Below are positions 2,266-49,417 of a stretch of DNA of 64,000 bases, piece after piece. The notes under the pieces are model-generated. The model did no database searches. It was given only the letters and a program-made list of their open reading frames with translations, and was not told where the DNA came from. The translations under genes were made by a program, and so were the position numbers. The stretch is from Candidatus Parcubacteria bacterium (lineage in GTDB: Bacteria > Patescibacteriota > Patescibacteriia > UBA1558 > GWA2-36-10), in contig JABHSK010000009.1 of NCBI GenBank assembly GCA_018669975.1, positions 51,127-115,126 of the forward strand, written 5' to 3'. Within the stretch, counting starts at the first letter, position 1; each line of letters opens with the position of its first letter.

Positions 2266-4065
2266 CTACTCTACGGTTACTGATTTAGCTAAATTTCTAG
2301 GCTTATCCACGTCTAAACCTTTGAGGTCTGCTATATAATAGGCTAATAATTGTAGTGGAATAGCATTGATAATTGGTGAGAGCTCATCAATCACCTCTGG
2401 CACCTTAATAATACTATCAGCTAACTTGGAAATTTCTTTATCATCCTGACTAACAATAGCAATAATGTTTCCGTCACGAGCCTTAACTTCTTGCATATTG
2501 CTAATTATCTTTTGTGATAAATTATTCTTTGTGGCCACAAAAACTACTGGCATATCCTCATCAATTAAAGCAATAGGGCCGTGCTTAATTTCAGCAGCCG
2601 GATAACCCTCGGCATGAATATATGATATCTCTTTGAGTTTTAGAGCGCCTTCTAGAGCTACTGGAAAATTGAGACCTCGCCCTAAATACAAAAAGTTTTT
2701 ACTATCAACAAATTTAGCAGCTACTTCTTTGATATTATCCGCTTGTTTAAGCGCCTGATTAATCTGATATGGTATCTTGTCTAGTTGCTTGAGTAAATCT
2801 TTATCAATCTCATGACCCTGTTGTTGCCTAATATATAAAGCTAACAATAAAAGCGCTACTACCTGTGAAGTAAAAGCCTTGGTGCTAGCCACACCAATCT
2901 CGGGACCAACATGTAAATAAATCCCAGAATCAACTTCTCGAGTAATAGTTGAACCAACTACGTTAACTATACCTAGGGTCTTAGCTTGTTTAACTTTAGC
3001 CTCTCTGAGAGCTGCTAGAGTATCTGCTGTTTCGCCTGATTGAGAAATCACTACCATTACATCCTCTGAGCTAACTATGGGGCTGCGGTATCTAAACTCT
3101 GAAGCATAATCAACCTCAGCAGGAATTTGAGCAATTGATTCCAAAAAATGTTTACCTATCAATGCTGAGTGCCAACTAGTACCACAGGCAGTAATGATAA
3201 TTCTGTTTATTTTCTGAATATCAAAATCAACCGTTAACTTAACTTTCCCATCTTTAATGCGACCTCGTAAAGTATTAGCTATAGCTTCGGGCTGCTCCAT
3301 GATTTCTTTAAGCATAAAATGCTTAAAACCCTTTTTCTCCATTTGCTCAACATTCCATTTTATTTCATCAACCTCCTTATTAATCTGTTCACCCTCGAGG
3401 TTGGTAATAATATATTTACCTTGGGTAATAACAGCAATTTCATTATCGTTAAGATAAATTACTCTCTTAGTATGTTCTAATATGGCAGGAATATCTGAAG
3501 CAATAAACATTTCATTTTCTCCCACACCAATAATCAGTGGCGAGCCTTTACGAGCCACCACTATTTTATTCTCATCCTTATGAATTACAGCTAAACCAAA
3601 GGCTCCTTCTATTAATTTAAGTGCTTGACGTACGGCTGCCTCTAAATCATTCTTATAAAATTTTTCCACCAAATGGGCAATAATCTCTGAATCTGTTTGC
3701 GACTTTATTTTGTGCCCCTCCTTTTTTAATAATTCTGTTAGAGCTTGATGGTTTTCAATAATACCATTATGTACAATGGCTAGTTCCTGCTTACAATCTA
3801 GATGAGGGTGGGCATTAGCCTCATTAGGCTCTCCGTGGGTAGCCCAACGAGTATGAGCAATGCCGATAGCACCATTTAGGGTTTTTGATTTTACTTTTTT
3901 AGCCAGCTCTGAAATCTTACCCTTAGCCTTAACGGTCTTGAGTTGCTGCTTATCTGATACACAAATACCAGCGCTATCATAACCCCGATATTCCAACTTT
4001 TGTAAACCATCTAACAAAAGTGGTGTTATGTCTTTATTGCCAATGTAGCCAATGATTCCACACAT
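2266..4065 (-). CDS. glmS: glutamine--fructose-6-phosphate aminotransferase
   Basis: MCGIIGYIG N-terminal nucleophile, two SIS domains, C-terminal ...KSVTVE; 599 aa. Confidence 0.95.
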   Translation of the reverse strand: MCGIIGYIGNKDITPLLLDGLQKLEYRGYDSAGICVSDKQQLKTVKAKGKISELAKKVKSKTLNGAIGIAHTRWATHGEPNEANAHPHLDCKQELAIVHNGIIENHQALTELLKKEGHKIKSQTDSEIIAHLVEKFYKNDLEAAVRQALKLIEGAFGLAVIHKDENKIVVARKGSPLIIGVGENEMFIASDIPAILEHTKRVIYLNDNEIAVITQGKYIITNLEGEQINKEVDEIKWNVEQMEKKGFKHFMLKEIMEQPEAIANTLRGRIKDGKVKLTVDFDIQKINRIIITACGTSWHSALIGKHFLESIAQIPAEVDYASEFRYRSPIVSSEDVMVVISQSGETADTLAALREAKVKQAKTLGIVNVVGSTITREVDSGIYLHVGPEIGVASTKAFTSQVVALLLLALYIRQQQGHEIDKDLLKQLDKIPYQINQALKQADNIKEVAAKFVDSKNFLYLGRGLNFPVALEGALKLKEISYIHAEGYPAAEIKHGPIALIDEDMPVVFVATKNNLSQKIISNMQEVKARDGNIIAIVSQDDKEISKLADSIIKVPEVIDELSPIINAIPLQLLAYYIADLKGLDVDKPRNLAKSVTVE

Positions 4066-4071: not shown

Positions 4072-4716
4072 TTAAATACCTCTTACTTTTCTATATATAC
4101 TTAATATAATTGGTGGGGCATACATTCTAATAAGTTCTTTCCGGCCACTTCTGAATGGACTGCTCCATTGATTTTGCCAAATCTTAAATTTAGTTTTAAA
4201 TCTTTTCATTTCCTCATCAGAAATTTCACCTTTAAAACCAGCACCTACAACAGTATGGGGAAACGTCCTGTCTCCGGCAGAGCCTACAAATGATGAGCTA
4301 AAAGGTTTAAGGAGGCTCTTAAATGCTTCAGGCGTATATCGCCAATAGTCATGCGGATGGTCATGGATGGGGAAATTCATAACAGAACTAATTATCAATA
4401 CACCGTTAGGCTTAAGTATCCTATAAGCTTCTTCAACAGCTTTATGTGGATATTCAACATGTTCTAAGGTGTCCATAATAATAACCGTACCCACTGACTC
4501 TGATGGTATATCTATTTTATGAAGATTTAAAACCACATCAACACCAATGCCCTGCCTCATATCAGCACCAACAAATTTTTTACCTTTGAAAAATGGCCTT
4601 AGGTCAGCTATCTTCTCTTGACCCTCTACCCTTAAAGATCCAAATTCATAAATCACTTCTTTCATCGGTAATGTCTGTGAGCATATTCCAACAAATTGTT
4701 TAACTAGCTTCCTCAT
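4072..4716 (-). CDS. class I SAM-dependent methyltransferase
   Basis: Methyltransf_11-like motifs (GADMRQGIGVD ... LKPNGVLIIS). Confidence 0.65.
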   Translation of the reverse strand: MRKLVKQFVGICSQTLPMKEVIYEFGSLRVEGQEKIADLRPFFKGKKFVGADMRQGIGVDVVLNLHKIDIPSESVGTVIIMDTLEHVEYPHKAVEEAYRILKPNGVLIISSVMNFPIHDHPHDYWRYTPEAFKSLLKPFSSSFVGSAGDRTFPHTVVGAGFKGEISDEEMKRFKTKFKIWQNQWSSPFRSGRKELIRMYAPPIILSIYRKVRGI

Positions 4717-4733: not shown

Positions 4734-6581
4734 TTAATTCTTTCTAACTATAACTAAATAGGCTGGACTTAAATCAAAATTAACAAATAATTTTTGTAAT
4801 ACATAGAATGGAAGGACAAAAAATCCCTTGAAGAAAAAACTAAACCTTCCAGCCACACTTCTATCTATGCCACTTCTAGTAGTATTAACTTCCTTTGAAG
4901 CCATGACATCCTCTTTTTTTATGAGCTTTTTTCTAATAAACCATAACATGTTTGATAAAGGAAAGCCATAATTATAGAATTTAATAATTCTAAAGCCAGC
5001 ATCACCCAACAACTTACTTAATTCCTTTTTTTCATAACGACGATAATGCCCTGCCCACTCATCTAGAATGCTCCATTGTTTTTGATGTGCTGGCACTGAC
5101 ATTATAAATGTTCCATCTTTAGTTAATAGCTTGTTTATTTTATCTAAAGCAAATCTATCATCTTCTATATGCTCTAATACCTCTAGAGCGACTATCATTT
5201 GATACTTATCCTTTTCTGTACTTTTCAAAAAGTCAGCTAATTCAAATTTTATTTTTGGATGACCAACATTGTGCTTAGCAGTAGTAATGGCTTCCTGACC
5301 AATATCAACACCTGTACCTGAACTAAAATATGGGCTAAGACTAGCTATCATATCACCACTGCCAATGCCTATCTCTAAAAATTTATCTACTTTAATTTTA
5401 TTATTTTGTATATATTCTAAGATCGTCCTCTTCCTCATCATATAGGCCGGCGTGGGAAGCCAAGTAGACTTTTGTTTATATTGCAGAACATCTTTAAATG
5501 CTCTGCCTGTTTTAGAAATAACAAAATTATTATTAAATAAGTCAAAAGCTTTGATGGCTATCTTTTCAGCTAAAGCAGGCTCGTTCTTTATCATTAATAT
5601 CTTTTCAGCTAGAACACTTGCATCTTTTGGTGGACAAAACAAACAATTCTCCTGATCTATAAAACCAGCCGATAGAGAAGCCTGACAGTCAGCAATAATC
5701 ACTGGCTTTTTCATAGCTATCATTTGAAAAACTTTATTAGCCACCACTCGTCTACCCTTTTGGCTACCACCAAAATGACCTCCAATACAAACATCTGCCT
5801 GTGCTATCTTGGCTGGCAATCTATCAAAATCAACCCAGTCCATAAACTTAATATTTTTTACTCCTAAATCATTGGACATTTTCAGCATCTTACCATGTAG
5901 CTGACCAGTGCCAATTATTTCTAATTCTATAGATTTATCTGTGGTCAAAATTTTAGCCGCCTTAATTATGGTATCAATCCCATGAATTGGAGAAAACTTT
6001 CCATAAAATAAAACCTTAAACTTGTTAGATTCCTGTTTCTCTAAAGGAAAAAAAATATTCTCATCTGCGCCAATGTATACGTGAGATAATTTCTGTCGTG
6101 GTATCTTAAACTTCTTAGCAAAGTAATCGGCATGTTCAGGCGTGTCTAATATTACTTTATTTGCTAAACGACAACTGATCTTGTCCAAAAAATATAAAGC
6201 TTTTTTTATCAAAAAATTATTACTAGTTTTTCTATCATCAATCATAGTATCATAAATAGATAACATGGGATTAAAGATGATCTTTTTTCTCAAAAATAAA
6301 ACCCTAGCCAATAACATATCCAACTGACCAGGATAACCAACGATAACACAATCAATTTTACCTAGACCAAATCTTTTGATAATTAATTTCAAATATAATA
6401 AAATTGCCAAAAATATCAACAATATTTTCTTCCCCAGGCTAAGATTAATTTTATTTTCAAATTTAGCATATAGATCAACTCGGTATTCCACCACCTCCAC
6501 ACCATTGGCAATTAAACCATTGATAATATTCCTATTACGTGGATAATCTTTTTCATATGTACCAAAATAACAAACTCTCAT
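4734..6581 (-). CDS. bifunctional protein: N-terminal GT-B (GT1/GT4-like) glycosyltransferase fused to a C-terminal class I SAM methyltransferase
   Basis: N-terminal 370 aa glycosyltransferase-like; C-terminal LEIGIGSGDMIASL ... VALEVLEHIEDD ... KDGTFIMSV methyltransferase motifs. Confidence 0.55.
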   Translation of the reverse strand: MRVCYFGTYEKDYPRNRNIINGLIANGVEVVEYRVDLYAKFENKINLSLGKKILLIFLAILLYLKLIIKRFGLGKIDCVIVGYPGQLDMLLARVLFLRKKIIFNPMLSIYDTMIDDRKTSNNFLIKKALYFLDKISCRLANKVILDTPEHADYFAKKFKIPRQKLSHVYIGADENIFFPLEKQESNKFKVLFYGKFSPIHGIDTIIKAAKILTTDKSIELEIIGTGQLHGKMLKMSNDLGVKNIKFMDWVDFDRLPAKIAQADVCIGGHFGGSQKGRRVVANKVFQMIAMKKPVIIADCQASLSAGFIDQENCLFCPPKDASVLAEKILMIKNEPALAEKIAIKAFDLFNNNFVISKTGRAFKDVLQYKQKSTWLPTPAYMMRKRTILEYIQNNKIKVDKFLEIGIGSGDMIASLSPYFSSGTGVDIGQEAITTAKHNVGHPKIKFELADFLKSTEKDKYQMIVALEVLEHIEDDRFALDKINKLLTKDGTFIMSVPAHQKQWSILDEWAGHYRRYEKKELSKLLGDAGFRIIKFYNYGFPLSNMLWFIRKKLIKKEDVMASKEVNTTRSGIDRSVAGRFSFFFKGFFVLPFYVLQKLFVNFDLSPAYLVIVRKN

Positions 6582-6585
6582 ATGA

Positions 6586-7350
6586 TTATTTTTTCTTAGC
6601 TATATAAATAATTTCACTTTGCATCAGATTACTTTTCGTTACAGTGGCTTCATTTAATTGTTCGCAATACCTTTTTGCCTGAACATTAAAGCCAGCGGAT
6701 GCTAACCTGTCTATATAATCACGACCATACAACCTTAAATGATCATACTGCCCAAATAACCTCTCTCTGTCTATTGGCTCAACTATGTTTTTGTCTTCAA
6801 GTGTCCTGTCCCTCTTAGTATCTATCGGCACTTGCAATATTGCCCAGCCACCTGGTTTAAGTACTCGATAAACTTCCTTCATGGCTTTGACATCATCTTC
6901 TACGTGCTCCAAAACATGATTGGCAAACACAACATCAAAAAGATTGTCAGTGAACGGCATTTTGTGAATATCTAATTTTACCTCAGCTAATGGAGAATTA
7001 AGATCGCCGGTTACATACTCAAGGTTAGACATCTTTTTAAATTTTCTATAAAAACATTGTTCTGGGGCCAAATGTAAAACTTTCAATTTATCTCTAAAAA
7101 AATTAGTTTCATTTTTTAAATAAAACCATAATAATCTATGACGCTCCAAAGACAAACAGCCCGGACATAAAGAATTATTTCTATTTTTAGAACCATAAGA
7201 AAAAAACCGACTAAAGCCAGTTTCACATATTGGACAATAGTGTTTATTGCCTTTTAAAAAAATACTAAAAATATTAGAAAAAATAAAACTAAACCTAATT
7301 AGTTGATGCCTTGGTAATTTTTGTATTAAAAATAATTTGGCTCGTCTCAT
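6586..7350 (-). CDS. SAM-dependent methyltransferase with N-terminal zinc-ribbon
   Basis: CPICETGF...CPGC zinc ribbon, then VLHLAPEQ / VVFANHVLEHVEDD / LKPGGWAIL methyltransferase motifs. Confidence 0.65.
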   Translation of the reverse strand: MRRAKLFLIQKLPRHQLIRFSFIFSNIFSIFLKGNKHYCPICETGFSRFFSYGSKNRNNSLCPGCLSLERHRLLWFYLKNETNFFRDKLKVLHLAPEQCFYRKFKKMSNLEYVTGDLNSPLAEVKLDIHKMPFTDNLFDVVFANHVLEHVEDDVKAMKEVYRVLKPGGWAILQVPIDTKRDRTLEDKNIVEPIDRERLFGQYDHLRLYGRDYIDRLASAGFNVQAKRYCEQLNEATVTKSNLMQSEIIYIAKKK

Positions 7351-7366: not shown

Positions 7367-8671
7367 CTACTCAAACAAAACCATAATACTTACTAATAAT
7401 GGGAAATCTATTTTAACAATTTGCCCATTGGATAATAATATATCAGCAAGTGTTCTTCCCCAGGGATTCAAAAATCCAATCAAAGCAACTACAATTGAAA
7501 TAGCTGTTGTTGTGGTAAATAATAACAAAAAGTTATATGATCTTTTCTTGGTAAACAATAAAAGAAGGAAAAAATAAAGTAGCGGCGTAATAGCAATAAG
7601 CCAACGATAACCAAAGGATGCTCCAGTGTAAACCCTAACCTTTAAAGAATAATATAAAATTATAATTAAAAAACCCACGAAAATTATAAGTGCCTCTAAC
7701 CTAAAATGTGCTTTTCTGTTTCTTAAAATTTTATAAATTGAATAAATTGAAAATAAGAGAATTGGGGTATATAAAAATAATCCATGTGTGCCAAACAATA
7801 TATTTATCAAATAAACCAATGGTCTACTCCTTATTGCTGTGCCGTAGGCAACGCTTACTGGATCCCAGAATTCTGGATGAAATTGAGGTAGCAGAAAATC
7901 ACCAGTAACCTGGTAATTAAGTACCACCTGTAGAATCAACATAGGTAGGGCTGCCAAAATATAGTAAATTATATATTTTTTAGGAAATGTTACTAAACAG
8001 TAAATAAAAAATAAAAATAAAAATGTTAAACCAGTCGGAATATCAATTACCGCTGCCAAAGAAATAAAAAATCCTGATAAACTCAAATATTTTTTATAGT
8101 TATTGGATTTCTTTAATTTTAATTTTAACAAAAAATAAAACCCTATAAACAACAAACTACCCGCGATAGTGTGATTGTTTAAAGAAATAAAAAAAGAAAA
8201 AAATAATGTTCCTAAACCAAAACCTAGTAATAGCCATGTCCTATATTCTTTTCTAATATCTAATAATTTAATAGTTTTGTGGAGGATAAATAATAAGGCG
8301 AAAAAACTACCTCCCACCAAAATTAAATTAATAAAATAAATAGCCCAGCTTTGATCTAACATTCGAATATCAAGATTGAAAACATTGTATAGAACAAAAT
8401 ATACCCCCGCTCCAGCTACTGACAAAACTGGCGGTTTAGAAGAATAATAATTACCATCCCGAAGTATTTTATCATCAGTATTAATCTGATAATCATTGAT
8501 CACTAGTGTGCCTTGCTCAACTATGGCTTGCATAGTCATAAAGCGTGATGAGTTATTGGTACTATCTGAATGGGGTCGTGTAAAAGCTAAGGCAAAGATA
8601 GCAAAAAACATAATCACCAGCAAAAGCTGGGATTTTATAAAATATTGTGCAATGTGTTTTTTGAAACCCAT
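7367..8671 (-). CDS. polytopic integral membrane protein, possible GT-C-fold glycosyltransferase
   Basis: At least 10 hydrophobic helices; sits inside a glycosyltransferase/methyltransferase locus; no recognisable catalytic motif. Confidence 0.35.
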   Translation of the reverse strand: MGFKKHIAQYFIKSQLLLVIMFFAIFALAFTRPHSDSTNNSSRFMTMQAIVEQGTLVINDYQINTDDKILRDGNYYSSKPPVLSVAGAGVYFVLYNVFNLDIRMLDQSWAIYFINLILVGGSFFALLFILHKTIKLLDIRKEYRTWLLLGFGLGTLFFSFFISLNNHTIAGSLLFIGFYFLLKLKLKKSNNYKKYLSLSGFFISLAAVIDIPTGLTFLFLFFIYCLVTFPKKYIIYYILAALPMLILQVVLNYQVTGDFLLPQFHPEFWDPVSVAYGTAIRSRPLVYLINILFGTHGLFLYTPILLFSIYSIYKILRNRKAHFRLEALIIFVGFLIIILYYSLKVRVYTGASFGYRWLIAITPLLYFFLLLLFTKKRSYNFLLLFTTTTAISIVVALIGFLNPWGRTLADILLSNGQIVKIDFPLLVSIMVLFE

Positions 8672-8672: not shown

Positions 8673-9623
8673 TTAAATGATTTTTTTTATGTAGTGCCTA
8701 GTTTCTTTTTTGTCTGCCTGTCGAACAATAATCTCTCCCAAAAACCCCATTGATATCAACTGGATGCCAATTATGATAAATAATACCCCTAAAAATAACA
8801 ACGGCCTACTACCAATAGCTTGCCCCTGAAACCAAACAATAGTTAAATATAAACACAGACCAGAACCGAGGAGAAAAAACATTAGACCCAAATTACCAAA
8901 GAAATGCGCTGGCTTACGAGCATACTTAGTCAATAAAATAACATTAATTGGATCTAATAAATAATTAGTAAATCTACCTAGTCCAAGATTGCCATATTTT
9001 GATTCGTCAAACTTGCGAGCATGGTGCTTAACTACGACCTCTGTCACCTTAAAGCCTTGTTGGTGAGCTAAAGCTGGCAGGAATCTATGCAGCTCTCCGT
9101 AAACGTTTATATTTTTTACTACCTCTTTTTTATAAATCTTAAAACCACAATTAAAATCATGCAGCTTTATTCCTGTCATTGATGCTACGGTAATATTAAA
9201 TATTTTAGAAGATATTAATTTTACCAAAGGATCCTTGCGATCTTTTTTCCAACCAGAAACCAGATCATAACCCTTATTTATTTTAGCTATTAGATTTGGT
9301 ATCTCATTGGGATCATCTTGCAAGTCAGCATCCATGGTAACAACTAAATCTCCCTGACATTCCTGAAACCCAATAGCTAGGGCTGCGGACTTGCCAAAAT
9401 TACGTCTTAGACTAATTACCTTAATTTGTTGATTGCTTACTTTGAGCTGCTTGAGAATATCTAGAGATCCATCATCAGAACCATCATCTATATAGACTAT
9501 CTCGTATGTTAAATTTAACCCAGTCAAAACATCAACTAATTTATCATTTAATTCCTGCAAAGAACCCTTTTCATTAAAAAGAGGAATTACTATTGATATT
9601 TCTTGATTAATTTTTTCAGACAT
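8673..9623 (-). CDS. GT2 polyprenol-phosphate glycosyltransferase (DPM1/ArnC/GtrB-like) with C-terminal TM helices
   Basis: ISIVIPLFNE, YIDDGSDDGS, TMDADLQDDP (DxD) motifs; two C-terminal TM helices. Confidence 0.85.
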   Translation of the reverse strand: MSEKINQEISIVIPLFNEKGSLQELNDKLVDVLTGLNLTYEIVYIDDGSDDGSLDILKQLKVSNQQIKVISLRRNFGKSAALAIGFQECQGDLVVTMDADLQDDPNEIPNLIAKINKGYDLVSGWKKDRKDPLVKLISSKIFNITVASMTGIKLHDFNCGFKIYKKEVVKNINVYGELHRFLPALAHQQGFKVTEVVVKHHARKFDESKYGNLGLGRFTNYLLDPINVILLTKYARKPAHFFGNLGLMFFLLGSGLCLYLTIVWFQGQAIGSRPLLFLGVLFIIIGIQLISMGFLGEIIVRQADKKETRHYIKKII

Positions 9624-9625: not shown

Positions 9626-10162
9626 TTAAAACTTATTTTTTTTGATTTTAAATATATACCCCAAATAATTAAAGAATGGATGAAAAAACAGAGCCATAGC
9701 CACGGCTGATAATAACATATGCCAAGGCAAGTATACATAAAACGACATAAATATGATAGTGCCTATAATCCAATCTATTTGATCAAATGGAAACCAATAT
9801 ACCCCTGGTTTAATTTGGCGGCGGCGTTTAAAAAAACTCCTAATTGCATCCCCAAACAAAGCACCGAATCCCATAAGAAAGCCTAGCAAAAAAACATTGG
9901 TCTGACTATAATCGATTATCAACCAATCTGTCATACTGCCGGTTATCGTAGTCTGCCAATATAAAAAAACCATACACGCCAAAATACCAAAAAAGAAGCC
10001 ACGAATTGTCTTGTGTGGTCCAAAGATAGGCTGATCTTTATATCTTTTATTAAAATCTATCGGATAATTAAGCCACGGCACCCATTTAAATAAAACCGGC
10101 GCCATGTTGGCTACTCCGGCTGGTAGAAAAAACCAAAATATTTTTACTAAATAAATAAACAT
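9626..10162 (-). CDS. small CTP-transferase-1 family membrane protein (CdsA/CarS-like, DUF46-sized, 178 aa)
   Basis: GPHKTIRGF resembles the SPxKTxEGF motif; C-terminal SFFKRRRQIKPG...FDQID resembles a degenerate CdsA/CarS signature; 5 TM helices. Confidence 0.4.
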   Translation of the reverse strand: MFIYLVKIFWFFLPAGVANMAPVLFKWVPWLNYPIDFNKRYKDQPIFGPHKTIRGFFFGILACMVFLYWQTTITGSMTDWLIIDYSQTNVFLLGFLMGFGALFGDAIRSFFKRRRQIKPGVYWFPFDQIDWIIGTIIFMSFYVYLPWHMLLSAVAMALFFHPFFNYLGYIFKIKKNKF

Positions 10163-10175
10163 TCAAATCAAGCTA

Positions 10176-10823
10176 TTAAAAATCTTTAAGGCTTTTCTTC
10201 TTACCCTTTAACTCCTTTTTTATTTTTGCAAAACTAACTACGGTTAATATTATAATCAGAACAGAGAATGCTAATAAAGCAATATTTAAATAATTTGCTC
10301 CTGTGAATGCCCACCATATATATAACGCATAAACCAAACCTTTACTTCTAACCACTAAACGAACGGGGATCTTGAGCCAATATCTAACAATAATAAAGAA
10401 TAGCCAAACCGTATAGAAATAAATATAAAGCAAACCAATATTAGGATCTATCAACCTAAATATACCCAGAGTTAAGACAACAATAAAAATACCTGTGTGA
10501 TCACAAACAGTATCAACTAAATCTCCCTCGGTATCATCCTGTTTAAGTAAACGGGCTAGCCCACCATCTATACCATCAATAAAAACATGTACTACTAAAA
10601 AAATACTAGCTATTTTTGGAGCATCTAAAACAAAATACACAAAACCACCCAAAATAAATATTCCAAAATAACTCAAGTGATTAGCACTAACGTTTATTTT
10701 TTTGAAAAATAAAGCTAGTGGTGAAAAAAATAAATCCCTCCAGCACCTAACTCTTTTATATAGAGTTTGCTCGGTTTCACAATAGTCATCTAAATACTTG
10801 TCTATTTTATGTATTTCGGACAT
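10176..10823 (-). CDS. CDP-alcohol phosphatidyltransferase family protein
   Basis: DGIDGGLARLLKQDDTEGDLVDTVCD matches D-G-x2-A-R-x8-G-x3-D-x3-D; multi-pass membrane protein. Confidence 0.8.
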   Translation of the reverse strand: MSEIHKIDKYLDDYCETEQTLYKRVRCWRDLFFSPLALFFKKINVSANHLSYFGIFILGGFVYFVLDAPKIASIFLVVHVFIDGIDGGLARLLKQDDTEGDLVDTVCDHTGIFIVVLTLGIFRLIDPNIGLLYIYFYTVWLFFIIVRYWLKIPVRLVVRSKGLVYALYIWWAFTGANYLNIALLAFSVLIIILTVVSFAKIKKELKGKKKSLKDF

Positions 10824-10962
10824 AACGCAAAATATTAATATGTATTTATAATACTATTTTTTCTATTTTTATTCAACAAAATATATTAGTATAAAAAAAT
10901 AACTATATAGCACATTAGACTTGTTTCTGTTATAATAATAAATAGATAATTAAAGTTTTAAT

Positions 10963-11733
10963 ATGGATGAGCAAAACAATACCCCTTTAAACAACGTGGC
11001 TACACCAACTGACGCATCAATGCCTGCTAGTGACGCCCCGGTCAACCCCACTTCCATGACTAATAATCAATTAGCCAATCAAGGCGTACCAGCTGAAATA
11101 TCTAATGAAACAGCTACTACACCTTTAGCAGCAGAACCAGCGCCAGTTACCCCCGAAGCAGTTACTCCTGCAAAAACTCAAGAGCAAACCTTTGGTAAGA
11201 GTGAACTTTTAAATGCCAAAGATATATTACTGGACATGCTAGGAATGGATATAGGGAATATGGTTGCCGATTTAGGAGCTGGCGGAGGGTTGTTTACTTT
11301 AACAGCGGCTAGAATAGTTGGGGATCAAGGACAGGTTTATGCCGTTGATATTATAAAAAATAGTTTATCTGAAATAGAATCAAAGGCTAGGATGGCCGGA
11401 CTGTATAATATCAAAACTATATGGAGTAATATAGAAATGGTTGGGGCCACAAAAATTCCCGATGCTTCCCTAGATTATGCTATGTTAGTTAATGTCTTGT
11501 TTCAATCAAAAAAACACTTTGAAATGATGAGCGAAGCTACTCGCCTATTAAAACCAAATGGAAAATTACTAATCGTAGATTGGAGTAATACTAACCCTGG
11601 TTTTGCACCAAATAATGACATGAAAGTTGATAAAGATAGCTTGATAAATAATTCTGCTCAAATAAATTTACTATTAGACAAAGAGTTCAAAGCTGGCGAA
11701 TACCATTTTGGCTTAATTTTCATAAAACAATAA
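10963..11733 (+). CDS. class I SAM-dependent methyltransferase with low-complexity Pro/Thr/Ala-rich N-terminal region
   Basis: VADLGAGGGLFT motif I, LLKPNGKLLIVDW; TGn-TATAAT extended -10 at about 10930-10940. Confidence 0.65.
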   Translation: MDEQNNTPLNNVATPTDASMPASDAPVNPTSMTNNQLANQGVPAEISNETATTPLAAEPAPVTPEAVTPAKTQEQTFGKSELLNAKDILLDMLGMDIGNMVADLGAGGGLFTLTAARIVGDQGQVYAVDIIKNSLSEIESKARMAGLYNIKTIWSNIEMVGATKIPDASLDYAMLVNVLFQSKKHFEMMSEATRLLKPNGKLLIVDWSNTNPGFAPNNDMKVDKDSLINNSAQINLLLDKEFKAGEYHFGLIFIKQ

Positions 11734-17585: not shown

Positions 17586-18803
17586 ATGCAAAAAGTAACT
17601 CCTCTGGCAGACAAACTAAGGCCTGATGAATTCAAAAAATTCTTTGGGCAGGAACACCTTTTGAATGAGGGTAAGATTCTTGATCAAATGATTAAGAGTC
17701 AAAGCCTGAGCTCCATTATTTTTTGGGGTCCTCCAGGCGTAGGTAAAACTACCCTAGCTCATGTGATGAGTCAGCAGCTCAAGGCTAAATTTATTTCTAG
17801 TAGCGCTGTGTTGATTGGTGTACCCGAAATAAAAAAAATTGCGGACAATGCTCGACAAGATGCTAATTTTCTTAAACAGAAGACAATTTTGTTTTTAGAT
17901 GAAATCCATCGTTTCAATAAAGCTCAACAGGATGTATTGCTACCCTATGTAGAGCAAGGCATTTTAACCTTAATTGGTGCTACCACAGAGAACCCTTCTT
18001 TTTCTATCAACTCTGCCCTCTTGTCACGCTGCAGGGTTTTGATTTTAAATTCTTTAGAAGAATCAGATCTTAAAAAAATTCTAAAATACGCTCTAAGTGA
18101 TAAAAAAAACGGTCTCGGCAATAAAAAATTAAACTTAAATAAAACAGCTGAAAAATTATTACTAAGTTTTGCTGAAGGAGATGCGCGTAGACTTTTAACT
18201 GCTATAGAAATTGCCAGCTACGGAAAAGAAAGAGTTACTCTAAATGAAAAAAATATCCGCGAGGCAATTCAAAGTTCAGTACTATATTACGATAAACACG
18301 GTGAAGAACATTACAACGTCATTTCAGCCCTACATAAATGTCTACGTGACTCAGATGCTGACGCTGCCCTCTACTGGCTAGCTAGAATGCTAGAAGCTGG
18401 CGAAGATCCTCTCTATGTGGCTAGACGTTTAATACGCTTTGCCTCAGAAGATGTGGGTATGGCAGATTTTCGGGCTTTATTAATAACCATGGCTGCTAAA
18501 GACACCGTTCATTTCGTGGGTATGCCAGAAGCTAAATTAGCTTTGGCGCAAGCTGTTGTATACCTAGCCCAGGCCAAAAAATCAAATAAGCTCTACACCG
18601 CTTATTCTCAAGCTGCCAAAGATGCTCAATCCACTAGTCATTTAGGTGTACCTCTAGTATTACGAAATGCTCCCACTAAATTAATGAAAGAACTAGCCTA
18701 TGGTAAGGGTTATAAATATGCTCCTAATAGTACTGAAAAGGAGATTTCTAAACAACAACATTGGCCTGATAAAATGGAACCTAAAAAATATTACTCTGAT
18801 TGA
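17586..18803 (+). CDS. rarA: replication-associated recombination protein A (AAA+ ATPase)
   Basis: Walker A GPPGVGKTT, Walker B LFLDEIHRFNK, MgsA C-terminal domain. Confidence 0.9.
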   Translation: MQKVTPLADKLRPDEFKKFFGQEHLLNEGKILDQMIKSQSLSSIIFWGPPGVGKTTLAHVMSQQLKAKFISSSAVLIGVPEIKKIADNARQDANFLKQKTILFLDEIHRFNKAQQDVLLPYVEQGILTLIGATTENPSFSINSALLSRCRVLILNSLEESDLKKILKYALSDKKNGLGNKKLNLNKTAEKLLLSFAEGDARRLLTAIEIASYGKERVTLNEKNIREAIQSSVLYYDKHGEEHYNVISALHKCLRDSDADAALYWLARMLEAGEDPLYVARRLIRFASEDVGMADFRALLITMAAKDTVHFVGMPEAKLALAQAVVYLAQAKKSNKLYTAYSQAAKDAQSTSHLGVPLVLRNAPTKLMKELAYGKGYKYAPNSTEKEISKQQHWPDKMEPKKYYSD

Positions 18804-19630
18804 TAAAATGTGATATAATGAAGCTAATATTATGGAAATTTATGTATAATAAAGAATTAAAAATCACAAAGCAGGTTGCTAAGGAAGCCGGGGAATTCTT
18901 GCGCAAAGAATTTTTACTATGGAAAAGAGGAAATGCCAGATATAAAAAACATATGGAACTGGTGACGTGGGTAGATGAAAAAGCTAATAAAATTATTTTA
19001 TCAAAATTAAAGAAGCATTTTCCAAAATACGCAATACTGTCTGAGGAAAGTGGCTTACAAGATAAGCCAAGTGATTATTCTTGGGTAGTTGATCCATTAG
19101 ACGGTACTACAAACTTTACTATCCATCACCCCTTGTTTGCTACATCTATTAGTTTATTTTACAAAAATGAAGTAGTGATGGCTGTCAGTTATCTACCAGT
19201 ATTAAAAGAAATGTATTGGGCCAGTAAAGATGGTGGCGTTTATAAAAACAATGAGAAAATCCATGTATCCTCTAAGTCTGCGTTGAGGGAGTCTATTATT
19301 TCTTATAATCATGGTCAGGGACGAATAAATACTAAAAAATCTTTTAGAATTTTTGAACACTTCCAACAAAAGGCTCTCAAGTGTCGTAATTTTCACTGCA
19401 CTAGCATGCAAACTGCTATGGTTGCAGCTGGACACATTGATGGCTACGCTGTCTCTGGGGCCAAGCTATGGGATGTAGCTGCGGGAATGTTATTTATTAA
19501 AGAGGCCGGTGGAGTTGTAACTGACTGGAAAAACAAACCATGGAGTAGAAAATCAAAAACTGTGTTAGCTGCAAATCCAAAACTACACAAAATATACTTA
19601 CGGGAGTTAAAAAAGATTGGACTTGCCTAA
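18800..19630 (+). CDS. inositol monophosphatase family protein (SuhB-like)
   Basis: WVVDPLDGTTNF motif; ATGA overlap with the rarA stop. Confidence 0.8.
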   Translation: MIKCDIMKLILWKFMYNKELKITKQVAKEAGEFLRKEFLLWKRGNARYKKHMELVTWVDEKANKIILSKLKKHFPKYAILSEESGLQDKPSDYSWVVDPLDGTTNFTIHHPLFATSISLFYKNEVVMAVSYLPVLKEMYWASKDGGVYKNNEKIHVSSKSALRESIISYNHGQGRINTKKSFRIFEHFQQKALKCRNFHCTSMQTAMVAAGHIDGYAVSGAKLWDVAAGMLFIKEAGGVVTDWKNKPWSRKSKTVLAANPKLHKIYLRELKKIGLA

Positions 19631-19661
19631 AATATGAATGTTTGCTAAATTGTTTATCCGT

Positions 19662-19736
<75 letters not shown>

Positions 19737-19743
19737 AATAAAA

Positions 19744-19771
19744 ACGAGCTAAAAAACAGCTCGATTTTTTT
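19744..19771 (+). terminator. intrinsic terminator after tRNA-Cys
   Basis: cgagctaaaaaacagctcg hairpin followed by a T7 run. Confidence 0.5.
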
Positions 19772-19807
19772 ATATAAAAAAACAGCCCAAAAGCTGTTAA
19801 AAAATCT

Positions 19808-19893
19808 GGTACCGGCGATCGGACTTGAACCGATACGGCCTTACGGCCACAGGATTTTAAGTCCTGCGTGTCTACCAATTCCACCACGCCGGC
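19808..19893 (-). tRNA. tRNA-Leu (anticodon TAA), long variable arm
   Basis: Reverse complement GCCGGCGTGGTGGAATTGGTAGACACGCAGGACTTAAAATCCTG...GGTTCAAGTCCGATCGCCGGTACCA; hairpin plus T-run terminator at 19773-19806 on the minus strand. Confidence 0.85.
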
Positions 19894-19897
19894 ATAC

Positions 19898-19974
19898 TGG
19901 AGCGAGTGACCGGGCTCGAACCGGCGACCTTTTCCTTGGCAAGGAAATGTTCTAGCCAACTGAACTACACTCGC
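19898..19974 (-). tRNA. tRNA-Gly (anticodon GCC)
   Basis: Reverse complement GCGAGTGTAGTTCAGTTGGCTAGAACATTTCCTTGCCAAGGAAAAGGTCGCCGGTTCGAGCCCGGTCACTCGCTCCA. Confidence 0.85.
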
Positions 19975-20083
19975 TTGATAAAACATAACTATTATACAAC
20001 AAAATAATAAAAAGTCAACCACTGATACTCTTGGTTTTGAACCTTAAAAATGCTATTATAAAGGAAGATTAAATTACTCAAAT

Positions 20084-37800: not shown

Positions 37801-39426
37801 ATGCCTGAAAAATCTCAAAATAAACATAATAAACTATTCACTTGGATTAAACAACACAAATTATTGCTACTAATAATAGTCGTGTTTTTGATTCTAAACA
37901 ACCTTTCTTATATCATAGGTTTTTGGCAAAGCAGTCAAAGCTCTGAACTAATATACAGAGTTACTCCACTTATGAACAGAGCCGATCATTTTGTCTACCT
38001 ATCACACATAGAACAAGGTAAAGAGGGTCATCTAATGACTAAGTTGCTCTATAATCACCTGGCTGAAAACAATGTTATGTTCTCACCACACTGGTATATA
38101 ATTGGGCAGTTTAGCAATATAACAAATATCAGTGTAGTCACTAGTTATTTTATTTGGCGAATATTATTATTAATTCCGTTTCTATTTTTACTATGGTGGT
38201 TTATCAAAAAAATATTCTCTAGTTATAAAAAATCAATTTTGGCCATGCTGACGATATTGTTTGGCAATGGTATAGGAACCATCTTTATAAATATATTTCC
38301 AGAAAGCACTCTAAAACCGACCAATTTGTGGATGCCTGAAAGTATTACATTCTTATCACTCAATCAGACGCCGTTATTTGTCTTGGCGCTGATATTGATC
38401 CTGTTGGTGTTTATATCATTTATAGAAAGTGTAAAAAGTAAAAAAAATTATTTAATACTAATCTGCTGTTCACTAAACCTGCTACTAACTCTAATACACA
38501 CCTATGATATGGTGATCACCCTAGCTGTTTTAACTGGTTGGTCAGCTTTTAAATTTTATCAAACTAGGCATAAAAAAATAATCCTCTACTTAGCTTATTT
38601 ATACTTTGTATCTGGAACGGGTGCGCTCTACTATGCCTGGCTATTAAGGCGTGACTTAGCGATGATTCAATGGAACGCTCAAAACCTGTGCATCTCTGGT
38701 CCATTAACTGAATATCTATGGGGAATGGGACTTTTATTCGTATTCTCAATAGCTGGTATAGTGTACATTATCAAAAAAAGATTATTCCAAAACGATTACC
38801 TAAATCTAATCACTGTCTGGGCCGCTATTGGTTGGGTGTTAATTTATCTACCAGTACATTTTAATCGTCGCTTATCTAATGGTTGGCACATGGCCCTGGC
38901 TATTACTTCTTTGTATTTTTTCCTTTGGCTACACAAAAAATTTCCTGTGGTGCTGCGGGGCGCATTAATTACTGTAGTGGGCTTCCTGGTGTTCTTTGAT
39001 ACTATGATATTTTTATCCGTAGACTCATCAGTAACACGCAGTAATGAGTCACATTATTTTTTTCATAGCCAGACTAAGCAAGAAATATATCAACAAATAC
39101 AAGCCACCACCGATGAACACGATGTTATACTGACCCGTGGCATAGATGGTAATCACTTGCCTGGTTTTACTGCTAGAAAAGTATACACTGGGCACCTAAT
39201 GGGCACCTGGGAAGCCGTTCTAAAAAATAGAGAAGTTGAAAAATTATGGTCAAACCCTAATGATATATCAGAATGGTTAGTAGACAAAAATATTGCCTAT
39301 ATTTTTGCTAGTCGTTTTTATATCCCTGAATTTGATAAAATAAAATGGCTCGCTAAAGAAAAATATATCGAGCCAATCATAGATAATGATGAATTTATAC
39401 TTTATAAAATATTGTTAGAAGAATAA
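37801..39426 (+). CDS. large polytopic membrane protein, unknown function (possible GT-C-like)
   Basis: 541 aa, at least 11 TM helices, C-terminal soluble domain; TGn-TAAAAT extended -10 at about 37783-37794. Confidence 0.35.
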   Translation: MPEKSQNKHNKLFTWIKQHKLLLLIIVVFLILNNLSYIIGFWQSSQSSELIYRVTPLMNRADHFVYLSHIEQGKEGHLMTKLLYNHLAENNVMFSPHWYIIGQFSNITNISVVTSYFIWRILLLIPFLFLLWWFIKKIFSSYKKSILAMLTILFGNGIGTIFINIFPESTLKPTNLWMPESITFLSLNQTPLFVLALILILLVFISFIESVKSKKNYLILICCSLNLLLTLIHTYDMVITLAVLTGWSAFKFYQTRHKKIILYLAYLYFVSGTGALYYAWLLRRDLAMIQWNAQNLCISGPLTEYLWGMGLLFVFSIAGIVYIIKKRLFQNDYLNLITVWAAIGWVLIYLPVHFNRRLSNGWHMALAITSLYFFLWLHKKFPVVLRGALITVVGFLVFFDTMIFLSVDSSVTRSNESHYFFHSQTKQEIYQQIQATTDEHDVILTRGIDGNHLPGFTARKVYTGHLMGTWEAVLKNREVEKLWSNPNDISEWLVDKNIAYIFASRFYIPEFDKIKWLAKEKYIEPIIDNDEFILYKILLEE

Positions 39427-40050
39427 TTATTTTTTAAATTTAACCAAACAACCTAGCGACATAAAAAAAGGAAAGCTGAAAGGCAGTCCTCTTTTTTTTA
39501 ATACTTGCAAATCAACCTCTCTGGACATTCGTCTTGGTGTAAAAAAATTTATATGATCAACAACACGGATAGGTCGACGCCCTAAAAGAAATCTAGATAT
39601 TGTCCATAAAACTTCATTGGGAAATGTAACTACCAGCAAGCCCCCTGGTTTTAATACTCTTTTAAATTCCGCTAATACTGCCTGATATTCGTCAACATGC
39701 TCTAAGGTCTCGGTACAGGTGATGAAGTCAAAAAAATTATCCTCAAAATCAAGCTTACTCAAGTCTGCTTTAATAAAATGCGTGTCCGGGCATCTTCTGG
39801 TAGCCATATCCAAAGCTTCCTGTGTTAAATCAATACCATAATATCTATTACTTTTATTTCTATTGTATAGTTTCTCCAATAAATGCCCCTCCCCACAACC
39901 AGCGTCCAAAACCTTCATCCCATCTTGGCTAGGCATGGTTTTAACAATATTGTCTAGTCTATTTAGATGCACGTATCTAACAAAAAAATTATCAGCACTA
40001 TATAATTTCTCCATATGATTTTCAGGCATATATAAAGGTGTCTTCTGCAT
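39427..40050 (-). CDS. class I SAM-dependent methyltransferase
   Basis: VLDAGCGEGHLLEKL motif I, LKPGGLLVVTFPN. Confidence 0.7.
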   Translation of the reverse strand: MQKTPLYMPENHMEKLYSADNFFVRYVHLNRLDNIVKTMPSQDGMKVLDAGCGEGHLLEKLYNRNKSNRYYGIDLTQEALDMATRRCPDTHFIKADLSKLDFEDNFFDFITCTETLEHVDEYQAVLAEFKRVLKPGGLLVVTFPNEVLWTISRFLLGRRPIRVVDHINFFTPRRMSREVDLQVLKKRGLPFSFPFFMSLGCLVKFKK

Positions 40051-40150
40051 ATTCAGATAAATAGTAAATTAAAACAATAAACTAATGATAGCCTAAATAC
40101 CACCTTCTTTCAAGCTTTATTATTGTTCGTTTTTTTGATAAAATAAGACT

Positions 40151-41755
40151 ATGCCAAGAAAAAAACGTACCACTTTATTAAACAAAATAACTGCTCTCAA
40201 ATTAGACTATGTGTTGCTTTTTGTTTTAATGTCACTATACTATGGACGATTACAGTGGAATAATTTCATCGGTGATCCAGATGGCTTTTACCATGCTAAA
40301 ATAACCACCTTTCTAGGCCAGGGCACTTTACTTAAAAGCTTACCCTGGATGCAGTTTACCACCCTAAAAGAACACTATACTGATCATCATCTACTATATC
40401 ATTTGTTACTTTTGCCTTTTACCTATATAACCGACAATGCTCTATTGGCTGTAAAGATAGCTACAGTTTTGTTTGCTGTAATAATGATTTTAGTCTTTTA
40501 TTGGCTACTCAAACAATTCAAGATTGTTTGGCCATTTGTCTTTGCTTTGTTATTTATAAGCCTGGAGGCGGTCAGCTTTAGATTGGCGCTAGTTAAGGCT
40601 AATTCTTTATCATTATTAGTCATTTGGTTATTGATATATGCCATGTTCCGTCAAAAAACATGGCTAATGGCTTTGCTGGGTTTTGTTTTTGTATGGCTTT
40701 ATGGTGGTTGGGCACTATCCATTATTATTTTCTTTATTTATTTCTTTAGTGAAAAAATATATGAACGCCTTAATACAAATAAATTAAAATTATTTTGGTC
40801 CAAAGTAGTCCATACTTTTAATTTTAAAAAGGGAAGCGCTAAAAACCATCGTATATTTCTAGGATTAATTCTGGGACTATTAGCTGGACTAGTTATTAAT
40901 CCCTATTGGCCACATAATTTATATTTTTATTATCAACAAATAATACAAATTGGCGTTATCAACCTTGGTGGTCAACTACAAGTAGGCGGTGAATGGTATG
41001 GCACATCTTTTATGCATATTATTTCTTCCTTGCCGCATATTTTTGTTCTAGCTAGTCTTTTGATTTTAATGTTATTTATAAACTACCAAAAAATTAGTAA
41101 AAAAACTTGGTTTAGTTTTTTGTTAAGTTTTGTCTTCTTGTTATTGACTGTAAAATCACGTCGTTATATAGAATACTTCTCTCCTTTCTTACTATTATTC
41201 ACGGCCTGTGCTTTCACTGATGTTAAATCTATGGTTAATTGGAAAAAAATAAAAAAATTCTGGAGTAATAATCCAACTTATTTAAAGGTGTACTTAGGTT
41301 TGGCCGGCACACTGTTTACCATATTGATACTACCGGTTATTTTCACTAAAACCTGGGATGTGGCTATCCCACAGAATTGGACCCTAGAAAAATTTCGCCC
41401 TGGCTTACTCTGGCTAAAACAAAACACACCAGCGGACACACTAATTTTCCATGGAGATTGGGATGAATGGCCAATACTCTTTTATCATAATGATCACAAC
41501 CGCTACATAGTTGGCTTAGACCCTACTTTTATGTACAACTTTGATGCTAATCTACAGCAAGAGCACACTGATATCACTGCTGGAAAAATAAAAGGGATAG
41601 TTTCAGAAAAAATAAAAAAAGACTTTGGTGCTGACTATGTTTTTATAGAAAAAAAAGAACATGCCGCGTTTGGAAACAACTTAGACATGGACTCCTTTGC
41701 TACGCTTGTTTATGAAGACGAAGAAGTGGCTATTTATCACTTGATAAGTCCCTAA
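40151..41755 (+). CDS. large polytopic membrane protein, unknown function
   Basis: 534 aa, about 12 TM helices, C-terminal soluble domain. Confidence 0.35.
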   Translation: MPRKKRTTLLNKITALKLDYVLLFVLMSLYYGRLQWNNFIGDPDGFYHAKITTFLGQGTLLKSLPWMQFTTLKEHYTDHHLLYHLLLLPFTYITDNALLAVKIATVLFAVIMILVFYWLLKQFKIVWPFVFALLFISLEAVSFRLALVKANSLSLLVIWLLIYAMFRQKTWLMALLGFVFVWLYGGWALSIIIFFIYFFSEKIYERLNTNKLKLFWSKVVHTFNFKKGSAKNHRIFLGLILGLLAGLVINPYWPHNLYFYYQQIIQIGVINLGGQLQVGGEWYGTSFMHIISSLPHIFVLASLLILMLFINYQKISKKTWFSFLLSFVFLLLTVKSRRYIEYFSPFLLLFTACAFTDVKSMVNWKKIKKFWSNNPTYLKVYLGLAGTLFTILILPVIFTKTWDVAIPQNWTLEKFRPGLLWLKQNTPADTLIFHGDWDEWPILFYHNDHNRYIVGLDPTFMYNFDANLQQEHTDITAGKIKGIVSEKIKKDFGADYVFIEKKEHAAFGNNLDMDSFATLVYEDEEVAIYHLISP

Positions 41756-43631: not shown

Positions 43632-43669
43632 ATTATATCACATTAAAAATGCCGGGGGTATGCTAAATA

Positions 43670-43698
43670 TTGACAAAATAGATGAAATATGATATAAT
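43670..43698 (+). promoter_or_regulatory. perfect sigma70 consensus promoter (TTGACA, 17 nt spacer, TATAAT)
   Basis: TTGACA at 43670-43675, TATAAT at 43693-43698; drives the GC-rich lipoprotein gene. Confidence 0.6.
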
Positions 43699-43780
43699 TA
43701 TAAGATTCTTAATGTGGCCTTTGTATAAGGTCCGACTGTTCATTTCTTCGCTAGGAAACTCTAAATAGGAGGTCGTCATC

Positions 43781-44503: not shown

Positions 44504-44525
44504 TCAAAAACTACCGAAATACAAA

Positions 44526-44559
44526 GCGCCGCAGCTCGAAAGCTGCGGCGCGTTTTTTT
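44526..44559. terminator. strong GC-rich intrinsic terminator (11-bp stem, T8), shared with the convergent pilin-like operon
   Basis: gcgccgcagctcgaaagctgcggcgcgttttttt. Confidence 0.7.
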
Positions 44560-44572
44560 AATAAAAATATAT

Positions 44573-44956: not shown

Positions 44957-45043
44957 TATATTTAGAAAGTAAAGCCTAGTGGAGGCTAAGCTCTAGTAGG
45001 TCATAATTCAATGACCTACTATAGTCTAGACTACATAGGTCTA

Positions 45044-45388: not shown

Positions 45389-45427
45389 TGTTTCACCCCC
45401 TTTCTAAAAAATAAAAGTATTGTTTAA

Positions 45428-45456
45428 ATTATAAAACAAAATTGACTTTTTTACAA
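45428..45456 (-). promoter_or_regulatory. sigma70-like promoter on the minus strand (TTGTAA, 17 nt spacer, TATAAT) internal to the paralog array, driving paralog 2
   Basis: Reverse complement reads ttgtaaaaaagtcaattttgttttataat; -35 at 45451-45456, -10 at 45428-45433. Confidence 0.5.
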
Positions 45457-45460
45457 TAGA

Positions 45461-45793: not shown

Positions 45794-45818
45794 ATCTATA
45801 TATTAATTTAATATTACC

Positions 45819-47838: not shown

Positions 47839-47846
47839 ATTTTAAA

Positions 47847-49414: not shown

Positions 49415-49417
49415 AAA

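Follow-up and report, generated by a model that had tools for sequence, protein, structure and literature searches.

A CarS-family cytidylyltransferase paired with a CDP-alcohol phosphatidyltransferase in a Parcubacteria genome: a probable phospholipid headgroup module

The closest described counterparts of the gene pair considered in this work are the CDP-archaeol synthases (CarS), represented by ApCarS (PDB 5GUF) and AfCarS, the bacterial CdsA, represented by TmCdsA (4Q2E/4Q2G), and the inositol-phosphate transferases PIPS and AIPS (RsPIPS 5D92, MtPgsA1 6H53) together with AF2299/DIPPS. In mycobacteria, pgsA1 and pimA are located in one operon. The pair under study is encoded in a stretch of 64,000 nucleotides from a Candidatus Parcubacteria bacterium (assembly GCA_018669975.1, contig JABHSK010000009.1; this whole stretch is hereafter referred to as the window), which is low in GC (about 33-39%) and carries bacterial housekeeping genes, namely those of NusA, trigger factor, Pol I and GlmS as well as RpoB/C-sized open reading frames (ORFs). 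The pair consists of a CarS-family CTP:lipid-phosphate cytidylyltransferase, a CDP-archaeol synthase homologue of 178 aa with five transmembrane helices (9626..10162, minus strand), and a 215-aa CDP-alcohol phosphatidyltransferase of a divergent ‘type B’ (10176..10823, minus strand). Both proteins already bear the names CarS and AIPS in annotation pipelines, and they are therefore new members of known families, intact and ordinary ones. In our opinion, it is fairly probable that the two proteins act as a CDP-lipid synthase and a headgroup transferase in phospholipid remodelling in a lipid-auxotrophic symbiont.

The 178-aa protein in relation to CarS and CdsA

Both ORFs were confirmed at the above positions. 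The NCBI entry MBT6691682.1, named ‘CDP-archaeol synthase [Candidatus Parcubacteria bacterium]’, is the exact 178-aa protein. A first-pass annotation, made from the sequence alone, had described it as a five-helix membrane protein bearing two motif strings, FGPHKTIRGFFFG and SFFKRRRQIKPGVYWFPFDQIDWIIG, and this description held: both strings are in the protein, and five helices appear in the AlphaFold2 model built from 27 homologues (pLDDT 92.6). The same annotation had assigned the protein to the CarS type rather than to the CdsA type and had proposed to compare the respective hidden Markov models (HMMs). The comparison bore the assignment out, as PF01864 (CarS-like) matched over practically the full length (88.4 bits, E 7e-25, cut-off 22; residues 5-175 of 178 aligned to HMM positions 5-172 of 175), whereas the match to PF01148 (CdsA) was partial (41.6 bits, residues 42-118 aligned to HMM positions 161-231 of 264). 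A phmmer comparison with 5GUF gave an E-value of 2e-6, and in a Foldseek search of the model against the PDB the sole match with E<=0.001 was again 5GUF (E 4e-5, TM 0.66/0.73), TmCdsA being the next one with E 0.56. Membership in the CarS family is certain, while equivalence of the substrate with that of CarS is not certain.

With ApCarS and AfCarS the protein shares the PF01864 domain, the size, the five-helix fold and the motifs P-A-x3-N, P-x-D, G-x2-K-T-x-[ER]-G, G-D-x3-S-F-x-K-R-R, G, D-Q-x-D and H-x3-N. It differs from them in being only about 27% identical to ApCarS, in belonging to a separate clade of the bacterial Candidate Phyla Radiation (CPR, or Patescibacteria) and DPANN archaea, and in scoring below the NCBIfam equivalog cut-off; moreover, its host is a bacterium with lipids expected to be fatty-acyl, and its lipid substrate is probably a different one. 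With TmCdsA it has in common the superfamily, the reaction type, the catalytic C-terminal core with the Asp-Asp metal dyad and the predicted cellular role, i.e., conversion of phosphatidic acid (PA) to CDP-diacylglycerol (CDP-DAG). Unlike CdsA, it lacks the N-terminal and dimerisation domains, comprises 5 helices instead of 9, has neither K-D nor P-G-H-G-G, and matches PF01148 only in part and the CdsA fold weakly.

The absence of KD and HGG had been taken in the first-pass annotation for a sign of degenerate catalytic motifs and, possibly, of a non-catalytic role. Indeed, the CdsA signature S-x2-K-R-x4-K-D-x5-P-G-H-G-G-x2-D-R-x-D was not found in the 178-aa protein, which reads SFFKRRRQIKPGVYWFPFDQID, without KD and GHGG. 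However, no CarS has KD or HGG, and this holds also for the crystallised active ApCarS, the sequence of which reads GKTIEG ... GDMAGSFVKRRLGIERG ... LLDQLD. The alignment of 27 clade sequences contains 28 invariant columns, and ApCarS is identical to the clade at 24 of these 28 positions. Residues D105, K112, R113, G120, D127 and Q128 are shared by all 120 canonical CarS and by 78-79 of the 79 clade members; the wider set of G48, K51, G55, G104-D105, F110, K112-R113, G120 and D127-Q128, all present in the window protein, is retained in 112-120 of 120 and 75-79 of 79 sequences, respectively. The motifs being the norm of the family and the invariant residues being in place, there is no sign of catalytic decay, and we rejected the notion of a degenerate or non-catalytic enzyme. 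Rejected was also the idea that R54 (KTxRG instead of KTxEG) is a signature of the clade, since R occurs at this position in 27 of 120 canonical CarS as well.

The roles of the CarS residues were mapped through TmCdsA by motif spacing. The catalytic Mg/K centre of TmCdsA is held by D219 and D249 (PMC7018664), D219 being located four residues before S223, the residue mutated in PDB 4Q2G. By this spacing, D219 would correspond to the Asp of G-D105-x3-S109, and D249, the first Asp of D-R-x-D, to D127 of D127-Q-x-D130.

The same data bear on the view that the gene is a degenerate remnant devoid of catalysis, or that archaeal DNA entered a bacterial bin by mis-assembly, for which one could cite the missing CdsA signature elements KD and HGG. 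Apart from the absence of these elements from all CarS, the strong purifying conservation seen in the 28 invariant columns speaks against it, and so does the presence of the identical gene on 23 independently assembled contigs, the longest of 844 kb, where it is flanked by the genes of NusA, trigger factor, Pol I and GlmS and by the RpoB/C-sized ORFs. We consider the probability of this explanation to be practically negligible.

The transferase and its conserved pairing with CarS

The 215-aa protein matched PF01066 (42.6 bits, E 1e-10, cut-off 22), which, like the PF01864 match of its partner, is far above chance, and contains, as the first-pass annotation had claimed, the intact CDP-alcohol phosphotransferase motif DGIDGGLARLLKQDDTEGDLVDTVCD, which is D83-x2-D86-G87-x2-A90-R91-x8-G100-x3-D104-x3-D108; 19 homologues with identity down to 19% retain all of these eight residues without exception. 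The profile of these 19 homologues, compared with the PDB, hit AF2299 (2e-12), PIPS (8e-12 to 2e-10), DIPPS (4e-9), PgsA (9e-7) and PssA (7e-5). The AlphaFold2 model (pLDDT 79) has the six-helix fold of CDP-alcohol phosphotransferases; among its top Foldseek matches were PIPS 5D92 (RsPIPS, TM 0.70), DIPPS, AF2299 and MtPgsA1, with probability 1.00 to PIPS, DIPPS, AF2299 and PgsA. The Joint Genome Institute (JGI) name of the protein is archaetidylinositol phosphate synthase (AIPS). In the profile search and by predicted fold, it ranks closest to the inositol-phosphate transferases (PIPS, AIPS, DIPPS, AF2299), and its acceptor is probably an inositol-phosphate-like alcohol. While the fold and the full eight-residue motif are shared with these enzymes, the protein differs from them in belonging to the ‘type B’ cluster, apart from the clearer AIPS-like proteins encoded beside CarS in Saccharibacteria and Levybacteria.

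The transferase gene precedes the CarS gene on the coding (minus) strand, 13 nt separating the two. The first-pass annotation had wrongly placed the transferase 4 nt downstream of its partner. Its central proposal, that the two proteins form a pair for CDP-activation of a lipid and headgroup transfer, was strengthened by the analysis of 80 fetched CarS loci, to which the neighbourhood counts given below refer. A CDP-alcohol transferase was found within 8 kb of CarS in 58 of the 80 loci, usually immediately upstream and on the same strand. Besides, the two domains are naturally fused (CDP-OH_P_transf-CarS) in three clusters (P0135, P0215 and P0231), one of the fusions (P0215; USN53187.1, L086:10001-10993) being located between gyrB and secE-nusG-rplKA in CP060223.1, a complete genome of Ca. 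Nomurabacteria; fusions of CarS with PAP2 and with DUF212 exist as well (P0161, P0226).

The transferases near CarS are of several kinds, that of the window being the divergent ‘type B’. PssA-like transferases, followed by phosphatidylserine decarboxylase, occur in DPANN, AIPS/PIPS-like ones, followed by a PHP phosphoesterase, in Saccharibacteria and Levybacteria, and PgsA-like ones in Falkowbacteria. The other recurrent neighbours are PHP phosphoesterase (21 loci), phosphatidylserine decarboxylase Psd (12), GDPD (8), divergent PAP2 (DUF212; 7), DAGK_cat/YegS lipid kinase (6) and EEP phosphoesterase. In two Levybacteria loci (L043:5590-8531 and L058) CarS is encoded in one cluster with MIPS, an AIPS-like transferase and a PHP phosphoesterase; this would, on paper, be a complete inositol-phospholipid route starting from the lipid phosphate, with the PHP protein as a candidate for the phosphatidylinositol phosphate (PIP) phosphatase step. 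The pairing, the fusions and the recurrent neighbours thus support the coupling of CarS with a CDP-alcohol transferase very well and place the module in phospholipid headgroup metabolism.

Upstream of CarS in two Saccharibacteria loci there is a 217-aa polytopic protein without a Pfam match, directly in L021 and several genes off in L010 (L010:3834-4487); in both of these loci a transferase of the window type stands convergently downstream of CarS. An IMPase-family protein (HisN-like 172 bits, SuhB-like 139 bits, both below the cut-off) is encoded in the window at 18800-19630 on the plus strand, 8 kb from the pair, and at a similar distance in a relative (L013); its connection with inositol-phosphate headgroup chemistry is possible but unsupported.

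Distribution of the clade and the putative lipid substrate

Relatives of the window CarS were detected in at least 546 genomes in a scan with one genome per species. Among the matches listed were, of the CPR, Parcubacteria lineages, Saccharibacteria, Peregrinibacteria, Peribacteria, Levybacteria, Falkowbacteria, Dojkabacteria, Gracilibacteria and others, and, of the DPANN archaea, Woesearchaeota and Nanoarchaeota. When 1.84 billion cluster representatives were searched exhaustively, 1542 clusters fell within E<=1e-3 and 777 within E<=1e-10. In neighbour-joining trees the clade was set apart from 40 canonical archaeal CarS in 100 of 100 bootstraps, the two sets having been gathered with different seeds, so that intermediates may be unsampled. 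Within the clade, CPR- and DPANN-labelled sequences are interleaved, the largest CPR-only group comprising a median of 7 of 36 sequences; the topology is star-like, and the direction of CPR/DPANN transfer is not given by the neighbour-joining tree. Several odd titles of third-party metagenome-assembled genomes, such as ‘uncultured Methanosarcinales’, ‘Gammaproteobacteria’ and ‘Muribaculaceae’, came up among the loci L005, L016, L019, L033, L037, L043, L045-L047, L067, L069, L071 and L083; by gene content and CarS these group with DPANN or CPR, and the titles look like placeholder or wrong taxonomy. In CheckM, PF01864 is among the universal single-copy markers of archaea (PMC10134863), and its occurrence in many CPR genomes could mislead domain and contamination estimates for mixed CPR/DPANN bins.

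The mechanisms of lipid acquisition in Patescibacteria were called unidentified in a 2024 review. The CPR lack complete lipid synthesis, and acylglycerol lipids were the only ones in the CPR size fraction (PMC7242380); a salvage route from PA via CDP-DAG to phosphatidylinositol (PI) was proposed from annotation for Saccharibacteria (PMC6031116). The catalytic activity, lipid substrate, acceptor alcohol and salvage role of the window pair we infer as follows. In the first step, the five-helix CarS would bind CTP in its cytoplasmic polar cavity and, by means of a Mg/K centre on the Asp pair D105/D127, would transfer CMP onto the phosphate of a phosphatidic-acid-type glycerolipid, yielding pyrophosphate and a CDP-activated lipid. 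In the second step, the six-helix transferase, with its D-x2-DG-x2-AR...G-x3-D-x3-D site, would pass the lipid-phosphate moiety to an alcohol with release of CMP, the acceptor being most likely an inositol-phosphate-like polyol phosphate. De novo lipid synthesis being beyond CPR bacteria, and fatty-acyl glycerolipids being present in their cell fraction, scavenged diacyl (or lyso) PA is the most likely lipid substrate. An archaeal-type CarS would thereby do the job of the bacterial CdsA, and the module would be part of a housekeeping system common to lipid-auxotrophic CPR bacteria and DPANN archaea. No canonical CdsA, PlsY or PlsC signatures were detected in the window or in the approximately 436,000 ORF residues around CarS in the 80 loci, a result without bearing on whole genomes.

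Several facts weigh against such a reading. The characterised CarS of A. fulgidus shows a strong preference for digeranylgeranylglyceryl phosphate (DGGGP) as against phosphatidic acid, and an E. coli cdsA mutant is not complemented by it (PMC9385802); given this discrimination, activity on acyl lipids would require a shift of specificity. The score of the 178-aa protein with the NCBIfam CarS equivalog NF003114 is 124.4 bits, below the cut-off of 148. The transferase stays far below the NCBIfam equivalog cut-offs (AIPS, NF040950, 43.3 vs 180; PIPS, NF045883, 27.3 vs 170), its Foldseek margin over PgsA is small (2e-4 vs 5e-3), and hhalign comparison with the neighbouring PssA-like and AIPS-like groups (2e-15 vs 3e-13) was not discriminating, for which reason assignment of the acceptor by profile-profile comparison with neighbour subgroups was dropped. 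It is because of these equivalog scores and of the non-discriminating comparison that the acceptor is not called more firmly. Finally, no phosphatase, lipid kinase or MIPS gene was found in the window.

The properties of the clade could also be explained by genuine archaeal chemistry, in which an isoprenoid ether lipid (DGGGP or archaetidic acid), either taken up from an archaeal host or produced by archaeal genes that the bacterium acquired, would be converted to a lipid with an archaetidyl headgroup, as by canonical CarS and AIPS. Parcubacteria of the Ca. Nealsonbacteria are reportedly, according to the title of a preprint (10.1101/2022.04.20.488981), ectosymbionts of methanogenic archaea. 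This explanation is favoured by the full set of CarS-invariant residues in the 178-aa protein, by the interleaving of the clade with DPANN archaea, by the JGI name of the transferase and by the homologues of GGGPS and DGGGPS reported in one Parcubacteria genome (PMC7852524). It is disfavoured by the breadth of the clade, which spans many CPR phyla including Saccharibacteria, and by the absence of GGGPS, DGGGPS and glycerol-1-phosphate dehydrogenase from the window and from the recurrent neighbours in the 80 loci. The cultured Saccharibacteria that are known are epibionts of Actinobacteria, which also counts against it. Considering, in addition, that acylglycerol lipids alone were recorded in the CPR cell fraction (PMC7242380), we regard archaeal chemistry as unlikely.

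Returning to the remodelling of fatty-acyl phospholipids, we tentatively extend it, as a possibility of less than even probability, to the whole clade, which might be the general CDP-lipid synthase of the CPR, replacing CdsA, acting on scavenged fatty-acyl PA, repeatedly exchanged between CPR and DPANN and constituting, along with the headgroup transferases, phosphatases and lipid kinase linked or fused to it, the core of the machinery by which host lipids are rebuilt. If true, this would be a natural case across the lipid divide, with an ‘archaeal’ lipid enzyme working on ‘bacterial’ lipids. CarS is treated as archaeal, yet a distinct clade of it is common in bacteria. In the literature searched we found no discussion of the breadth of a CPR/DPANN-specific CarS clade, of its fusions or of its phospholipid-operon contexts. 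The conserved and sometimes fused module of CarS and CDP-alcohol transferase, with its phosphatase, lipid-kinase and MIPS partners, offers a concrete and testable entry point to the acquisition and tailoring of membrane lipids in the CPR.

The glycan cassette and other genes of the window

In the window, the transferase is the first of eight genes that run on one strand from 10823 to 2266, spaced by 1-17 nt. The gene next after CarS, at a distance of 2 nt, is the first one of a glycan cassette and encodes a GT2 polyprenyl-phosphate glycosyltransferase of the ArnC/GtrB/PgfS type (8673..9623, minus strand; PF00535, E 1e-32), which scored 197 bits with NCBIfam ArnC and 157 bits with PgfS, both below the cut-off, and 171, 151 and 80 bits, respectively, with ArnC, GtrB and DPMS of the PDB. 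The second gene (7367..8671, minus) encodes a polytopic 434-aa membrane protein, a putative GT-C-like glycosyltransferase; this assignment is weak, the sole match being the NCBIfam LA_3751/LA_3752 putative glycosyltransferase (53 bits vs a cut-off of 200), with no Pfam match and no sequence match in the PDB. Further along the same strand are a class I S-adenosylmethionine (SAM) methyltransferase of 254 aa (6586..7350; PF08241, E 4e-16), a 615-aa fusion of a GT4 (GT-B) glycosyltransferase with a SAM methyltransferase (4734..6581; PF13692, PF00534, PF13489/PF08241), the best NCBIfam match of its GT4 part being WcaI-like (43 bits) with no PimA-specific match, and, as the last cassette gene, a SAM methyltransferase of 214 aa (4072..4716; PF08241, E 5e-10). 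The run ends with glmS (2266..4065, minus), coding for glutamine-fructose-6-phosphate aminotransferase with GATase_6/7 and SIS domains. The co-location with a GT2 and methyltransferases, remarked upon in the first-pass annotation, was thereby confirmed, the GT2 being of the ArnC/GtrB type and three methyltransferase domains lying downstream of it.

The inference that the pair belongs to a glycan locus was not supported by comparison with other genomes. In relatives with a CarS about 59% identical, the five cassette genes are absent between CarS and glmS, and the arrangement is either a divergent methyltransferase gene followed by transferase-CarS-glmS or CarS-glmS, directly adjacent; CarS and GlmS are direct neighbours, with the GT2 absent there, in L005, L006, L007, L013 and L022. 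The cassette is present only in the relative with about 80% identity (L085), and no coupling to glycan genes by conserved synteny was found beyond it. In related Parcubacteria, GlmS ancestrally follows CarS, and, since the relatives with about 59% identity lack the cassette, the latter is a recent insertion between CarS and glmS, confined to a genus-level lineage and standing outside the conserved module. The pair probably serves for re-tailoring of scavenged lipids rather than being part of the neighbouring sugar-chain genes, and the glycan genes, inserted later in this lineage, would probably be co-transcribed with it without belonging to the module.

Co-transcription of the pair and the cassette in this lineage is likely. 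An AT-rich divergent intergenic region (10824..10962), which we presume to contain the promoter, separates the operon from an oppositely oriented methyltransferase gene. Weak sigma-70-like matches occur in it on the minus strand at 10961..10932 and 10876..10848, and the number of matches in the promoter scan (57) was not above the shuffled expectation (46.8+/-7.5); the terminator scan revealed no convincing internal terminator in the operon. Both scans are uninformative as to co-transcription.

It is against this background that a glycolipid-anchor route has to be weighed, in which a PI-like anchor made by the pair would be built by the GT4, the GT2/GT-C proteins and the methyltransferases into a methylated lipoglycan, similarly to mycobacterial PI, PI mannosides (PIM) and lipomannan/lipoarabinomannan (LM/LAM). 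The co-orientation and tight spacing of the eight genes with no convincing internal terminator, the apparent proximity of the transferase to PIP synthases, the polyprenyl-phosphate sugar synthase type of the GT2 and the IMPase-family gene 8 kb away are in favour of this route. As in the mycobacterial pgsA1-pimA operon, a PIP-synthase-like gene and a GT4 gene are together in one presumed transcription unit, with genes for polyprenyl-phosphate-sugar-dependent glycosylation alongside; the window differs from that operon in the lack of a PimA-specific match, in the restriction of the arrangement to one genus-level lineage and in the inclusion of CarS instead of reliance on CdsA. An ArnC-like GT2 adjoins CarS also in L034, L038 and L057, and a scheme leading from PI to PIM was proposed for Saccharibacteria (PMC6031116). 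On the other hand, these three are the only such cases, adjacent GT2 genes being absent from 76 of the 79 other loci, the cassette is missing in all relatives with about 59% identity, the GT4 is WcaI-like rather than PimA-like by NCBIfam, and the GT-C assignment is weak. We therefore find the glycolipid-anchor route rather improbable.

The position of CarS directly upstream of a polyprenyl-phosphate glycosyltransferase gene also admits a CTP-dependent polyprenol kinase, which would supply the adjacent GT2 with regenerated polyprenyl phosphate. The same CTP-transferase superfamily also includes dolichol kinase and phytol kinase, and the partial PF01148 match of the 178-aa protein would be compatible with such a function. 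At the same time, the best full-length match is to CarS both in sequence and in fold, no kinase-family models scored for the protein in Pfam or NCBIfam, GT2 adjacency is rare, and the partner in 58 of the 80 loci and in the fusions, a CDP-alcohol transferase, depends on a CDP-activated donor and not on the product of a kinase; a kinase function is accordingly very unlikely.

The divergent methyltransferase (10963-11733, plus strand) begins with a low-complexity Pro/Ala/Thr-rich N-terminus of about 80 aa, followed by a UbiE/ArsM-like domain. Six loci of related Parcubacteria show the same divergent arrangement, with the genes of a small transmembrane protein, UPF0102, NusA and H+-pyrophosphatase behind it; the enzyme may act on the lipid, or its position may be inherited synteny. 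A 122-aa minus-strand ORF at 19654-20022 was discarded as an ORF-calling artefact over a cluster of tRNA-Cys, tRNA-Leu and tRNA-Gly (19662-19974). Positions 37801-52125 accommodate a second envelope-glycan region, which encodes two polytopic proteins of 530-540 aa without a Pfam match, DUF2079 and DUF6498 proteins and a Wzy_C O-antigen-ligase-like protein; judged from the ORF sequences alone, a sugar-nucleotide pyrophosphorylase seems to be encoded at 47847-48707 and a flippase at 50698-52125. Within the same interval, at 44573-46472 on the minus strand, four small tandem paralogues match T4SS_pilin/TrbC-VirB2 pilins (PF18895, PF04956) and may be the pilins of a type IV secretion or conjugation-like system of Patescibacteria.

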